NCBI GenBank assembly: GCA_964552055.1
Contig: CAZKFL010000002.1
Span: 10,665-74,664 of the forward strand
DNA from: an uncultured bacterium
GTDB taxonomy: Bacteria > Chlamydiota > Chlamydiia > Chlamydiales > 2-12-FULL-49-11
Reading direction: 5' to 3'
DNA: 64,000 nucleotides
Below, in pieces: positions 18,440 to 22,972 of the stretch. Position numbers and translations under genes: made by a program. The number at the start of each line of letters is the position of its first letter. Position 1 is the stretch's first letter. The notes beneath the pieces are model-generated. The model was not told the origin of the DNA. It saw only the letters and a list, made by a program, of their open reading frames with translations, and made no database searches.

Positions 18440-19804
18440 ATGAATTTTTTTGGAGGATTTATGAAGGGTAGTGAAATTTCAGAAAAGACATTAAATGCAA
18501 TGCGTAAAGAGTTTCGAAGCTCTTCTAGAAATTTAGCAATGGTGAATGCAGTTTCAAGAACTGACATTAAGAAAGTTGCTTTAAATTGGGAAAGATTTGC
18601 TACAATTTCACATACCTTTTCAGATACAATAACAAATGAACTCCCCGTGACATCACAGAGTCAAAGTGGTAGATGTTGGCTTTTTGCAGGACTTAATTTA
18701 CTGCGAATACATGTAGCTAGAAAACACAAATTGGAAGAGTTTGAGCTCTCGCAAAGTTATCTTTTTTTCTGGGATAAATTGGAGAAAGCAAACTACTTTT
18801 TCGAAAGTGTTATTGATACAGCAAAAGAGTCTCATGATAGCCGTCTTGTGAAGTGCATTTTTGATGGTGGTTTTCTATTTCAAGATGGCGGCCAGTGGCA
18901 TATGTTTGCAAATCTTGTTGAGAAATACGGACTAGTCCCCCAATCAGTCTACCCTGATAATGAAGCGTGCTTAAATTCGAGGGACTTCAACCAAATCATG
19001 AAAATGAAACTTCGCGAGCAAGGCGTCCTTCTACGGACCATGATGGAAAACGGTTCTTCTAAAAAAGATGTTCAAACTGCTAAAAACAAGATGGTAGAAG
19101 AAATATACCGAATGCTTTCCATCCATATGGGCACCCCCCCTACACATTTTGACTGGGAATTCCAAGGTAAAGACAAAAAATTTCACGCACACCGTGGTCT
19201 CACTCCCCACTCTTTTTACAAAGAACATGTGAAAGTTGATCTAAAAGAGTTTGTTTGCCTTGTACACAGCCCTCGTAAACTCACCCCGCTTCACAAAACA
19301 TTTACTGTTCAGTATCTTGGGAATGTCGTTGAAGGTGCCCCTATCCTCTATTTAAATGTCCCCATAGAAGAAATGAAAGAAGCAGCCATTAAGTCCCTAA
19401 AAGATAACGAACCTGTATGGCACGGTTGCGACGTAGGAAAATCTTTCCACCGAGATCTTGGCGTAATGGACCTAAAACTCTATGATCTACACCTTGTCTA
19501 TGACGTCCCCTTTCACACAACAAAAGAAATGCGTATGAACTTTGGAGAAAGTCAAATGACTCACGCCATGCTCTTTACTGGCGTTAATCTGATCAATAAC
19601 AAGCCTAATAGATGGCGCGTTGAAAATAGTTGGGGCGACAAAGTGGGTAAAAAGGGCTTCTTCATCATGACAGATGAATGGTTCGATGAATACATGTTTG
19701 AAATTGCAATCCACAAAAAATATTTGCCAAAATCGCTACTCAAACTTCTAGAAGAGCCTCCCACAGCTTTGCCGCCGTGGGATCCTCTCGGCGCTTTAGC
19801 TTAA
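18440..19804 (+). CDS. pepC: Aminopeptidase C / bleomycin hydrolase (peptidase C1B)
   Basis: Catalytic Cys motif QSQSGRCWLFAGLN, ENSWG, and the characteristic C-terminal tail ending GALA. Confidence 0.9.
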   Translation: MNFFGGFMKGSEISEKTLNAMRKEFRSSSRNLAMVNAVSRTDIKKVALNWERFATISHTFSDTITNELPVTSQSQSGRCWLFAGLNLLRIHVARKHKLEEFELSQSYLFFWDKLEKANYFFESVIDTAKESHDSRLVKCIFDGGFLFQDGGQWHMFANLVEKYGLVPQSVYPDNEACLNSRDFNQIMKMKLREQGVLLRTMMENGSSKKDVQTAKNKMVEEIYRMLSIHMGTPPTHFDWEFQGKDKKFHAHRGLTPHSFYKEHVKVDLKEFVCLVHSPRKLTPLHKTFTVQYLGNVVEGAPILYLNVPIEEMKEAAIKSLKDNEPVWHGCDVGKSFHRDLGVMDLKLYDLHLVYDVPFHTTKEMRMNFGESQMTHAMLFTGVNLINNKPNRWRVENSWGDKVGKKGFFIMTDEWFDEYMFEIAIHKKYLPKSLLKLLEEPPTALPPWDPLGALA

Positions 19805-20226
19805 CTTTCCTCTTCATCGCGCATAAGCACTGCATTCGCAATAGCTGGATACACAAGATTTGGCGCAAAAAGACCTAGCGCGCCTGCAAATAATATTGGT
19901 ACAATTTGTTTGATGCAACCACCAGTCAGTTTAAATGTATACCAAGCATCATGACGAGCTCTATCAACTTCTCCACTCAGTAATGTTACCGGAGCTCTCA
20001 CTGCACAAAGAACTGTATTATGAAAAGCAGCTAGTAAAAGAAAAATAAGTGAATCTACCATTTTTAAAGTTGGTATCCATCTGCTAGTAAATGCATTGCC
20101 ATTCAATGACAACTCCTTGCATAGAGCATATTTAGTTGCTAAAGGATAGTCACGCTCGGTTGTAGCAAAACAAGAATGGAGAAATTTATTTGGTGATTGT
20201 GTTGCTGGTAAAAAAGCAGCTGACAT
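19801..20226 (-). CDS. Small two-TM membrane protein, duplicate 1
   Basis: 141 aa. It shares SPNKFLHS, TSRW..TL.MVD, VRAP and ILFAGALGL..PN.VYPAIANAV with the 20645 gene. It shares a palindromic TTAA stop with pepC. Confidence 0.6.
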   Translation of the reverse strand: MSAAFLPATQSPNKFLHSCFATTERDYPLATKYALCKELSLNGNAFTSRWIPTLKMVDSLIFLLLAAFHNTVLCAVRAPVTLLSGEVDRARHDAWYTFKLTGGCIKQIVPILFAGALGLFAPNLVYPAIANAVLMRDEEES

Positions 20227-20268
20227 AGTAACCTCTGATTAGATTATTGATAAAATTATTTTAGCAAC

Positions 20269-20588
20269 TTATATTGATTTACTTCTAGAATATTTCGCTT
20301 TTATTATTATAGAGTGTTTATTAAAATTTTTTGTATGTCTGTAATAAATTATTTGATTTGACTCGTCTAGCTCGTAAGAACCATCGGAAAGCTCTATTGT
20401 AAACCTCAGTTTTGAGTTTATGTAATTCCAAATCAAAACTATGCCTACAAATAGTTGTTAGATTTTGTCGGGGAAGAAGCTCCCCCGACAAAAAAAAGAT
20501 TAAAATTTATCCTTATCTACTTGATAGAGAATTAAATAAACCAAAAATTCAGGTTGTAAACCCTTTGCCAAAATGAAGATGAGGCAAA
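20269..20588 (-). pseudogene. Remnant of the GH5 glycosidase 3' end, created by the duplication and split by an insertion
   Basis: About 96% nucleotide identity to 21107-21269. It has no upstream coding continuation and is interrupted at 20406-20562. Confidence 0.75.
20406..20553. mobile_element. 148-bp insertion flanked by the 9-bp direct repeat TTGTAAACC (MITE-like or other insertion)
   Basis: The intact GH5 gene reads ...CTCTATTGTAAACC|CTTTGCC... In the remnant the two halves are separated by 148 bp plus a second TTGTAAACC (20397-20405 and 20554-20562). The insert contains the palindrome TTTTGTCGGGG..CCCCGACAAAA at 20463-20493. Confidence 0.4.
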
Positions 20589-20644
20589 GCAGAGCCTCCC
20601 ACAGCTTTGCCACCGTGGGATCCTCTCGGAGCTTTAGCTTAACT

Positions 20645-21064
20645 TTACCTTGCCCTGGGTGCAACCACTGCGTTCGCAATAGCTGGATACACATCATTTG
20701 GCACCAAAAGACCTAGCGCGCCTGCAAATAATATTGCTACACTTCGTTTGATGCAATTATATGCCTCTTTAAATCCTCTGCAAGCTCTATCCCAAGCTAT
20801 CTCCTGTTCTCCAATCATTAATTTTAGAGGAGCCCTAACTACAAGCAGAATTATATTATTCAAAGCGTTAAATAAATTAAGAACAAGTAGATCTACCATT
20901 ATTAAAGTTGATACCCATCTACTAGTAATCGGATTGCCACTCAATGATGTCGTCTTGCATTTTGTATATGCATTTGCTAGATAAAAGTCTGACTCAGTTG
21001 AAGAAAACAAAGAATGAAGAAATTTATTGGGTGAATCTTTTGCTGAAACACAAAAAGTTGACAT
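20645..21064 (-). CDS. Small two-TM membrane protein, duplicate 2
   Basis: 139 aa, paralog of 19801-20226. A pepC-tail remnant lies immediately 3' of it. Confidence 0.6.
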   Translation of the reverse strand: MSTFCVSAKDSPNKFLHSLFSSTESDFYLANAYTKCKTTSLSGNPITSRWVSTLIMVDLLVLNLFNALNNIILLVVRAPLKLMIGEQEIAWDRACRGFKEAYNCIKRSVAILFAGALGLLVPNDVYPAIANAVVAPRAR

Positions 21065-21106
21065 AGTAACCTCTGATTACGATAATGATAGCACTATTAT
21101 AACAAA

Positions 21107-22972
21107 TTATATTGATTTGCTTCGAGAATATTTCGCTTTTATTATTATAGAGTGTTTATTAAAATCTTTTGTATGATTGTAATAAATTATTTGATTTGAC
21201 TCATCTAGCTCGTAAGAACCATCGGAAAGCTCTATTGTAAACCCTTTGCCAAAATGAAGATGAGGCAAAAAGATTTCTGTCGGATGATCAATGAGATCGT
21301 CGTGTTCGAAGTGATATTCAAATATTTTTTGAGTCATTTTAAATTGGAGATATAGCGGCTTACCAGCTGTTTTAATAGGATAAGGCCTGATAAAGGCGTT
21401 TTTTGCTCTTGCTCCTGAATACGATGGGTCATTAGAGGTATGTTGGTCTTTGCTATAGATAGAGAGGTCTTCTTCGTTCCAATGATCCCCTTTTGCATTG
21501 GAATTATGGCCTGTATAGTTCCAAAGGATTGAGGAAGCAAGGTTGTCTTCGATTGCCAAAAAAGTTCTATGAAGCGCTTTATCTTGAAGGCTAAAGTCTC
21601 CTGATTTGTAAGCTTTCTTACTGGCTAGGTCTTGAGGGATTCCGAATTCAGTGATAATTAAGGGGATATTTCCCATGTGTTCTTTAGCAAACGCTTTGAG
21701 ATGCCAAATTTGATCGGCAAAAGCTTTTCGAAGATTTTTCGGTGTTTTTACAATTTTTTTCATGTGAACCATATCAAACCCAAAAAATCGAAAAAACTGC
21801 TTGGTTGCAAGTAAAACAGCATCGTACCAGTGACTTGTAAACACCACATTGGTCACATCTTTTTCACTCCATTTGGGCGGAGGTGATCCGACAACATGCT
21901 CTACAAGCAAAATTGTATTCGGAGAAATTGCAAGAATTTCTTTTCCCACTTTATTAATAAACGGCTTATAGAATTCATCTTCAAAGTTAAAGTTTTTAAA
22001 GTAGTCCGGTTTTAGTAAGACAGACTCCCCTTTCTCGCTTATGCCCCAAACTCCATGCTCCTTCCATACGCAAGAAAAACCAGTTTGCCAAGCCTTATTT
22101 TTTTTCTGGTTAAGCTCTATTTTTTTATCCTTTCGAATGACTAATTTTTTTTGCTTCCACACATCTACATGTGCTGAATTACCAGCGCCGAGTACCATTC
22201 CTTCAAAAGGTGTTGGGGTTTCTCCTAACTGAAAAATCCCGATATGTTTATTTAAGTCTTTGCAACCTATGTAGCCTGAAAGAGGCTCATTCATGATATC
22301 GTATCCAATTACTTCAGGGTGATTTTTTAGTTTTTCGACAACCTTTTTGACAAAACCAATGTAAGCATCCTGCAAAAAATCTTCGAGATTTTTTCCTTCA
22401 ATTTCTTATTTGGGAGCGAATTGCTTTCCTCCGAAAAACAAGGTGAACATGGTTGCGGTAGCTAATTTATAAGCGTTTGTGGGCCAAAGAATATGAGGCT
22501 TGTGCTGCTTGGGATTGTATAAAACAGCAGCACCTACAGACTCGAGCTGACTTATATCAAAACCGGCGATTTCAAGAGTCCATCCGGGAGCGCCATCCCC
22601 GCCAGTAAAGCGAGACCATACATCTTGGTGAAAATCGATAAAGATTTTAAAACCAAACTCTCCCGCCTTTTCAACAATTTTTTCTAAATAATTGAGGTAT
22701 TTTTCATCATAAATGCCATGTCCTGCATGCTCTACAGCTTCCCAACTGACGCTTAATCTTATAAGAGTAAACCCCCAATATTTAAGTCTTGAAAAATGTT
22801 CATCTGCAGATTTTAAGGGAAATGGCCTACCTACAAAGGAGACTTCACGGTGATTCTTATTCCAAATTCGAGGCAGCTTTGCCGTTAAATTGACACCTCT
22901 AAAAATCAAGTAACGTCCGTGCTGATCCTTAAACGACTCACCATCAATGCGAATATCGTACGGATCTGACAT
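21107..22972 (-). pseudogene. Glycoside hydrolase family 5 (endoglycoceramidase/cellulase-like) interrupted by a single in-frame TAA
   Basis: The N-terminal ORF (22406-22972) has IRLSVSWEAVEH and IDFHQDVWSR..GGDGAPGW. The C-terminal ORF (21107-22375) has the acid/base motif GYDIMNEP and the nucleophile motif ITEFG. Both are in the same frame, separated only by TAA at 22406-22408 (..FAPK*EIEGKNLEDFLQDAY..). Confidence 0.8.

Follow-up and report, generated by a model that had tools for sequence, protein, structure and literature searches.

A mosaic tandem duplication beside pepC in an uncultured chlamydial genome: uneven divergence of a small gene for a predicted membrane protein and signs of selection in one part of it

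In snake-venom phospholipases A2 (PLA2), conotoxins and colicin immunity regions, the coding core outpaces the adjacent non-coding or flanking DNA, with non-synonymous divergence (dN) exceeding synonymous divergence (dS) in exposed segments. The ‘island of divergence’ models are a later development of work on duplicates that evolve under both gene conversion and selection. Gene conversion makes duplicates look younger than their real age, a statement for which PMC3857721 cites Teshima and Innan 2004. The locus described here lies in a stretch of 64,000 nucleotides (the window) of contig CAZKFL010000002.1 from an uncultured bacterium (assembly GCA_964552055.1), where a 681-bp unit between the aminopeptidase C gene pepC and a GH5 glycoside hydrolase gene occurs twice in tandem and carries in each copy a small gene, termed A in the first unit and B in the second. 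The source genome is chlamydial and resembles metagenome-assembled genomes (MAGs) of the Rhabdochlamydiaceae.

The chlamydiae that live in symbiosis with invertebrates and protists have not been cultured, and most of the proteins by which they interact with their hosts cannot be recognised from sequence. The Inc proteins of chlamydiae share ‘little or no primary sequence similarity’ (PMC3656976) and have an operational definition, a pair of hydrophobic helices with fewer than 30 residues in between (Dehoux et al. 2011, PMC3048545); the loops of known Inc proteins average 8 residues and contain no charged residues (PMC3048545).

The duplicated unit and its identity mosaic

The pepC gene (plus strand) and the GH5 gene (minus strand) are convergent, and two minus-strand open reading frames (ORFs), A and B, lie in between. 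Unit 1 begins with the final 52 nt of pepC (19753-19804), where the stop codons of A and pepC (19802-19804) overlap in TTAA, and unit 2 ends with the final 163 nt of the GH5 gene (21107-21269). Read along the plus strand, both A and B lie between a 52-nt copy of the pepC 3′ end, which comes first, and a 163-nt copy of the GH5 3′ end. With a 157-bp insert taken out, unit 1 (19753-20405 plus 20563-20590) has the same length as unit 2 (20591-21271), 681 nt, and the two align gap-free over 681/681 positions with zero indels; true homology stops at 21269, and the final 2 nt of the 681 differ. Head-to-tail units, a defined junction and truncated copies of the flanking genes together identify a tandem segmental duplication.

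The tandem duplication of the 681-bp unit is genuine and common to several strains. Three other, very fragmented assemblies contain short contigs that between them carry A, B, the remnants of the flanking genes and the junction, and an assembly artefact, a possibility that the original prediction had raised, is rejected. One of these contigs (L083, from GCA_013558355) equals window positions 19628-20366 at 100% identity and another (L081, from GCA_013572825) equals 20613-21247, also at 100%. The third (L082, from GCA_013558295, 1050 bp) matches 20411-21460 at 99.1% with 9 mismatches, and spans the GH5 gene, B, the pepC remnant, the junction and part of the insert.

Divergence between the units is not uniform across the coding sequence (CDS) and its flanks, as had been predicted. 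The pepC tail (19753-19804) is identical at 50/52 nt, exactly as claimed, and the GH5 tail (20269-20588, without the insert), which had been described as nearly unchanged, is identical at 157/163 over its full length; the flanks overall are 96% identical, with 8/215 positions differing. Between them, the patch at the 3′ end of the small gene (19805-19830) is identical at only 14/26 positions, and the second hydrophobic segment (19831-19912) at 74/82 (90%), in agreement with the high similarity claimed for the part encoding the C-terminal transmembrane segment. The remaining CDS (19913-20226) is identical at 219/314 positions; the central codons had been called barely alignable, which did not hold, the core aligning gap-free at ~70% identity. 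The 42-nt leader (20227-20268) is identical at 32/42 positions (24% diverged); the 15 nt nearest the Shine-Dalgarno (SD) sequence and ATG are identical in both copies, and outside them 10/27 positions differ (37%). Chance does not account for this heterogeneity along the unit: none of 200 permutations exceeded 24.4 in the two-breakpoint maximum chi-square test, for which the observed value is 51.7. The best breakpoints fall at 19809, 5 nt past the pepC stop, and at 20270, inside the copy-1 equivalent of the GH5 stop (20269-20271). The gap-free alignment, the segment identities and the chi-square value bear out the predicted duplication of a 681-bp unit with conserved flanks and a diverged small gene.

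Silent changes reveal two layers in this divergence. Among codons that specify the same residue in both copies, a silent change is present in 9/39 in codons 1-80, in 1/31 in codons 81-133 and in 5/66 in the flanks, and the contrast of codons 1-80 with codons 81-133 and the flanks combined (6/97) has a Fisher p of 0.012. Codons 1-80 (19987-20226) have dN 0.35, dS 0.35-0.5 and dN/dS 0.7-1.0, and together with the leader show a silent or non-coding divergence 3-5 times that of the flanks, whose differences comprise 5 synonymous and 3 non-synonymous changes (dS 0.08-0.16, dN/dS 0.11-0.25). Codons 1-80 and the 42-nt leader are the older layer, with a silent or non-coding divergence of ~0.35-0.5; a silent divergence of ~0.05-0.12 marks both unit edges and the 3′-most 40% of the gene as the young layer. 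Since neutral divergence differs in the 5′ 60% of the gene and the leader, and selection on the protein cannot create such a difference, the unit is a recombinational mosaic, and the contrast between this block and the rest needs recombination, either conversion at the edges of the unit or replacement of a block.

The flanks had been regarded as junk DNA. One copy of each is a remnant, but the other is the working 3′ end of pepC or of the GH5 gene, so that only one member of each pair can drift. A model of neutrally drifting remnants fails: a divergence of ~0.25-0.3 predicts, by arithmetic from the flank counts, ~20 differences at non-synonymous sites in the flanks, and 3 are seen. The GH5 gene is itself interrupted by an in-frame TAA at 22406-22408, where relatives have Lys, giving ORFs of 188 aa and 422 aa, and intact orthologues of 607-622 aa are present in L001 and L002. 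The gene is probably a recent pseudogene, although its 3′ end serves as the ‘functional’ flank of the repeat.

Selection on the small gene

The proteins encoded by A (141 aa) and B (139 aa) are identical at 73/139 residues (52.5%), close to the half that had been estimated by eye. Over the whole gene dN/dS is 1.3-1.6 by four methods (NG86 bootstrap 95% interval 1.01-2.79), with differences distributed 46:39:29 over codon positions and a ratio of transversions to transitions of 66:49. When the observed number and spectrum of changes were placed at random in neutral simulations, the frame stayed open in only 1.3-1.6% of them; this rarity, and the lack of indels, imply that both copies have been kept. 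Both are maintained as open genes while changing at or above the neutral rate.

A different pattern is found in L002 and L167, two relatives in which the small gene is single-copy. Between them the small gene has dN 0.31, dS >1.3 and dN/dS 0.07-0.25, with differences of 34:22:54 over codon positions 1, 2 and 3. The small proteins are 56% identical, and the pepC tail is 95% identical as protein but 83% as DNA, with dS saturated; as this saturation is like that of the small gene, the silent sites of pepC are not specially protected. By its pattern of differences, the small ORF is a fast-evolving but constrained protein-coding gene in L002 and L167, and the comparison supports the view that the small gene in the window changes far faster than the family norm. 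The claim that a coding core outpaces adjacent junk thus survives for the small gene as measured against its family (dN/dS 1.3-1.6 versus 0.07-0.25), but in codons 1-80 and the leader the excess reflects different ages.

The excess of amino acid change is concentrated in the 3′ part of the gene. Codons 81-133 have dN 0.33-0.35, dS 0.05-0.09 and dN/dS 3.6-6.4 (Fisher p=0.008), and across codons 81-139 there are 43 non-synonymous differences at 135 sites against 4 synonymous differences at 42 sites (one-sided Fisher p=0.0024). The focus is codons 81-105, which lie between the two hydrophobic segments: 16/25 residues differ, with dN 0.64-0.69, dS 0.07-0.17 and dN/dS 3.8-9.9, and the 9 conserved codons, including positions 82, 86, 90, 94 and 98, are without any silent change. 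Spaced by four, these conserved residues would line up as a single stripe along a helix, a sign that selection acts on the protein. These values indicate that codons 81-139, comprising the inter-helix segment, the second hydrophobic segment and the C-terminal tail, are under positive selection. The diversifying selection invoked by the original prediction therefore holds for this part and not for codons 1-80 and the leader; a dS as high as dN, which the prediction itself had named as speaking against it, is found in codons 1-80, whereas dS in codons 81-139 is as low as in the flanks. The contrast of diverged core and conserved flanks has two causes: over the 3′-most 40% of the gene it reflects positive selection, and over the 5′ 60% and leader a difference in neutral divergence.

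It is improbable that no adaptation occurred and that one copy has been decaying under relaxed constraint (dN/dS ~1), with its ORF open by luck and the mosaic reflecting conversion noise. Relaxation alone could not produce the dN/dS significantly above 1 in codons 81-139, nor is decay easily reconciled with the open frames and absence of indels in 681 nt, with an SD and ATG identical in both copies, or with A and B sequences that, a single patch excepted, are the same across three samples. Decay would account for the near-uniform distribution of differences over codon positions, for a dN/dS in codons 1-105 that is not different from 1 (0.97-1.35, bootstrap 0.79-2.4) and for A being the derived copy in the N-terminal half, and the premature stop in the neighbouring GH5 gene demonstrates that gene decay occurs at this locus.

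The excepted patch is seen in L082. All 9 of its mismatches fall within 20610-20654 (45 bp), 7 of them within 12 nt (20643-20654) that belong to the B equivalent of the hypervariable patch, and there are none in the other ~1000 bp; as a result the B protein of that strain ends in ..APRKTYS in place of ..APRAR and is 141 aa long. No donor for the new 12-mer is present in the window when up to 3 mismatches are allowed. This cluster at the C-terminal tail of B is the sole feature that could point to something unusual. A target of a diversity-generating retroelement (DGR) was considered and rejected: the substitutions between A and B include all 12 classes and are not adenine-specific (A>N accounts for 24/115), and no reverse transcriptase domain was found among the neighbouring ORFs scanned, which took in the 664-aa member of a tandem gene pair upstream.

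The 7 substitutions in 12 nt between otherwise identical strains, and the near-randomised codons beside silent-free ones, prompted the further idea that the exposed segments (the inter-helix segment and the C-terminal tail) are diversified by a dedicated, non-DGR mechanism that writes dense multi-nucleotide patches. Such a local, targeted mutational process, whether templated patch replacement or error-prone repair, would take the place of point mutation followed by selection, and could explain why the 16 variable inter-helix codons are nearly randomised at all three codon positions beside conserved codons without silent change. If true, an obligate intracellular symbiont would possess a system of programmed variation, but the prospect is very remote. 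The substitution spectrum does not favour it, neither a reverse transcriptase nor another diversification gene was found among the neighbours scanned, and the window holds no donor; residues conserved every four positions argue for selection at the protein level, and the L082 assembly is fragmented enough for an error to be possible.

Recombination history

The history preferred here, with a probability of about 0.45, is an old duplication followed by conversion at the edges and by positive selection on the inter-helix segment and tail. The duplication would be as old as the 5′ block (dS ~0.35-0.5), and intra-array gene conversion would later have re-homogenised both edges of the unit, one tract taking in the pepC tail and the gene as far as about codon 81, and a second the GH5 tail as far as its stop codon. 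Afterwards the inter-helix segment and the C-terminal tail would have been rapidly rewritten by positive selection. From the sequences we infer this gene-conversion history, and likewise any host-facing role of the protein.

One reason for preferring this history lies in residues 1-80, in which B shares the outgroup residue in 31 comparisons and A in 10. By this count ancestral states have been lost from A, the more derived paralogue, and such a loss fits a paralogue accelerated after duplication better than a functional allele imported from elsewhere. Such an import is the basis of an unlikely alternative, in which the duplication is recent, with an age given by the ~4% flank divergence, and the 5′ 240 nt and leader of one copy were replaced from a diverged allele of another strain by homologous recombination, with crossovers within the small gene and the conserved GH5 tail; the inter-helix segment and C-terminal tail would be under positive selection as before. 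A functional donor should match the outgroups as B does, and dN close to dS would be unexpected between two functional alleles when true orthologues have dN/dS 0.07-0.25; this last difference is also a reason for preferring old duplication with edge conversion, as is the absence of a donor lineage from every collection searched (5.8 billion clustered proteins, 1.84 billion representatives, GTDB genomes and JGI metagenomes). Block replacement does have the merit that a single duplication gives both young edges and a clean junction without conversion tracts, and a breakpoint at the GH5 stop is expected from exchange between strains with a conserved GH5 gene. The 9 substitutions of L082 within 45 bp of an otherwise identical kilobase would likewise fit short-tract exchange with unseen alleles.

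That hint of exchange, which favours replacement, is one of several points that weigh against old duplication with edge conversion. No conversion event is directly seen, and two tracts are required, one of which must end precisely at the GH5 stop codon. The counts behind the silent-site tests are small (p 0.01-0.035), and the inter-helix dN/dS above 1 depends on 25 codons near saturation. No single-copy or intermediate strain that would give polarity or timing was found among the protein clusters, GTDB genomes or JGI/ENA metagenomes.

A quite improbable history is that A and B were never copies within one genome, but are two already diverged alleles from different strains that were merged by unequal or illegitimate recombination, their flanks being alike through the purifying selection that acted on both, as working ends of pepC and GH5, up to the merger. 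Divergence between alleles before duplication has been proposed (Proulx and Phillips 2006, as listed in PMC3857721), and a merger would account for the coincidence of the high-identity breakpoints with the pepC and GH5 stop codons and for flank differences that are like those of functional genes (5 synonymous against 3 non-synonymous, dN/dS 0.11-0.25, with both pepC-tail changes synonymous). Against it, a merger predicts equal silent divergence throughout, and the observed values are 9/39 in codons 1-80 versus 1/31 and 5/66 elsewhere (p=0.012-0.035). It also predicts flanks as diverged as in the orthologue control, where, at 56% protein identity, the pepC tail is down to 83% nucleotide identity with saturated dS, whereas the flanks here are 96% identical with dS ~0.1.

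Gene family, neighbouring features and comparison with known systems

The proteins encoded by A and B have no match in Pfam or NCBIfam. A word-indexed search of 5.8 billion clustered proteins returned A and B only, and tblastn, used to look for further paralogue donors in the window, likewise returned only these two. An exhaustive search of 1.84 billion representatives with a hidden Markov model (HMM) added P0007 (238 aa) and P0008 (221 aa), and a profile built from seven family members added P0009 and P0010; a repeat protein from the HMM search, P0006, was rejected as a false positive. A scan of JGI/ENA metagenomes with an alignment of the small protein gave no match, and with pepC a best match of 73%, on a contig without the pepC 3′ end. 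Among GTDB genomes, the relatives of pepC are chlamydial MAGs, at most 76% identical, one of them labelled Rhabdochlamydiaceae.

The small-gene family is linked to pepC across chlamydial MAGs. The genes for P0007 and P0008 occupy the interval that separates the redoxin gene from the pepC start and encode coiled-coil-like tails, and the proteins of L001 (547 aa) and L004 (758 aa) are encoded at the same site and have such tails too. The long forms (221-758 aa) are found at L001 3231-4874, L004 3561-5837, L084 1892-2608 and L086 4001-4666, and their coiled-coil matches are sub-threshold in Pfam and NCBIfam scans. The short form (109-141 aa) lies at the opposite end of pepC, convergent with it, and is found only in the window, L002 and L167. 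Judged by these positions, the membrane module was relocated across pepC and truncated in the lineage of the window, L002 and L167. On the metagenome contig L167, 99 codons follow the conserved ...DPLGALA end within the pepC ORF, ahead of the small gene that converges on it.

The small gene is predicted to encode a lineage-specific, chlamydia-specific membrane protein with two hydrophobic helices. By a crude hydropathy method (Kyte-Doolittle, 19-residue window, threshold at least 1.4), hydrophobic segments span residues ~50-80 and ~100-135 in A and ~46-85 and ~103-129 in B, separated by a spacer of ~25 residues; in the L002 ORF and the N-terminal part of the L004 protein, only the second segment reaches the threshold. 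AlphaFold2, run with a three-sequence alignment, gave an all-helical model with a predicted local distance difference test score (pLDDT) of 58, including a low-confidence helix at residues 84-120 with a pLDDT of ~60-65. The spacer (GEVDRARHDAWYTFKLTGG in A and GEQEIAWDRACRGFKEAYN in B) is charged and predicted to be helical.

The features of the interval between pepC and the GH5 gene are collected in Table 1.

Table 1. Features of the pepC-GH5 interval, with positions given in the window
Feature	Position	Strand	Basis or remark
pepC (aminopeptidase C, Peptidase_C1_2)	18440-19804	+	Pfam PF03051, E=2.9e-172; ORF list
Small gene A, 141 aa	19801-20226	-	ORF list, hydropathy, outgroup comparison
Hypervariable patch, C-terminal tail of A (..LMRDEEES)	19805-19830	-	B equivalent 20643-20668; 14/26 nt identical
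A codons 81-105, between the two hydrophobic segments	19912-19986	-	B equivalent 20750-20824; focus of non-synonymous change
‘Old’ block, A codons 1-80 and 42-nt leader	19987-20268	-	B equivalent 20825-21106; raised silent and leader divergence
GH5 3′-end remnant, first part, non-functional	20269-20405	-	96% identical to the real GH5 tail
MITE-like insertion splitting the GH5 remnant	20406-20553	no strand	Direct repeats, inverted arms, hairpin
GH5 remnant, second part, then duplication junction at ~20589-20592	20554-20590	-	35 nt 100% identical to 21235-21269
pepC 3′-end remnant	20591-20643	+	50/52 identical to the real tail; both differences synonymous in the pepC frame
Small gene B, 139 aa, paralogue nearer the outgroup sequences	20645-21064	-	ORF list, hydropathy, outgroup comparison
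GH5 glycoside hydrolase gene	21107-22972	-	Pfam PF00150 and PF18564; translation

The GH5 remnant is split by a 148-bp insert that contains no ORF, is bounded by 9-bp direct repeats resembling a target-site duplication (TTGTAAACC, at 20397-20405 and 20554-20562) and has 35-nt imperfect inverted repeats at its termini, 77% complementary, with a GC hairpin at its centre. Its predicted RNA fold has a z of -5.8. Being short and non-coding, with terminal inverted repeats and a target-site duplication, it has the structure of a miniature inverted-repeat transposable element (MITE); it is single-copy within the 64-kb window and is also found in strain contig L082. A weak terminator-like hairpin (GAGGC...GCCTC with a T-rich tail) at 20581-20598 on the minus strand, downstream of B, is formed exactly by the duplication junction. 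In a scan for promoters and terminators, sites were no more frequent than in shuffled sequence, and Rfam models matched only two tRNAs, both distant, with no structured RNA at the locus.

The neighbours of the locus are pepC, a redoxin gene, the GH5 gene, a SulP gene (named from tblastn only), a 116-aa membrane ORF and a pair of paralogues, the last four having no assignment from a domain match. The paralogues form a second tandem pair of lineage-specific genes upstream (13709-17751), encoding proteins of 678 aa and 664 aa that are 44% identical; the 664-aa member has no Pfam match. Elsewhere in the window, the ORF at 8-1078 contains three tandem copies of a 246-nt repeat (313-1051, 70-72% identical), and at 40333-40506 lies an inverted repeat with arms of 62 nt that are 77% complementary and 50 nt apart.

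Comparison with the Inc proteins gives a divided picture. As with Inc proteins, the small-protein family is found only in chlamydiae, without homologues elsewhere, and its short form has two hydrophobic helices (at residues ~53-79 and ~105-133) less than 30 residues apart and evolves fast; the coiled-coil tails of longer family members also fit Inc biology. A and B have the operational Inc hydrophobicity pattern, with a spacer of ~25 residues as measured by crude hydropathy only, and one Inc candidate, CPn0223 ([54-72]26[98-123]), has a similar helix spacing. Unlike Inc proteins, A and B lack a short, uncharged, turn-forming loop, their spacer of ~25 residues being charge-rich and predicted to be helical, and they match neither IncA (PF04156) nor any other Inc family in Pfam or NCBIfam. 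From its hydrophobicity pattern, the small protein may be called Inc-like in architecture only. The gene family is uncharacterised, and the locus flags it as a pepC-linked family without a Pfam or NCBIfam model, which would have been cut to a membrane module, moved across pepC, duplicated and driven apart. The selection focus on a 25-residue predicted helix and the C-terminal tail offers concrete residues for work on localisation and host binding.

With venom PLA2, conotoxins and colicin immunity regions the locus shares a coding core that is more diverged than its flanks, with dN exceeding dS in exposed segments. It differs from them in that the contrast partly reflects mosaic age and not selection, and in being represented by two paralogues and three near-identical strains only; no toxin, immunity or secreted-peptide context was found around A and B, for which the original prediction had expected a host-exposed or immunity-type role.

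The closest likeness in the form of the divergence is to duplicates that evolve under conversion with a selected core, as PMC3857721 presents them in citing Teshima and Innan 2004. In those duplicates, as between A and B, divergence is low at the edges and high in the core, including linked silent and non-coding sites, and the apparent age varies along the unit. Set against that account, the unit of A and B measures 681 bp, belongs to a bacterial tandem repeat and has the dead ends of flanking genes as its edges, its conversion is read from sequence, and its most strongly selected segment (codons 81-139) lies in the young part and not in the old core. A mosaic tandem duplicate with selection in one part is a pattern already known and is not a new system or mechanism; what the locus would add is a small-scale case, from a bacterium, in which selection combines with conversion or recombination to make a duplicate look young at its edges and old in its core, and a caution against dating duplications from the identity of their flanks.

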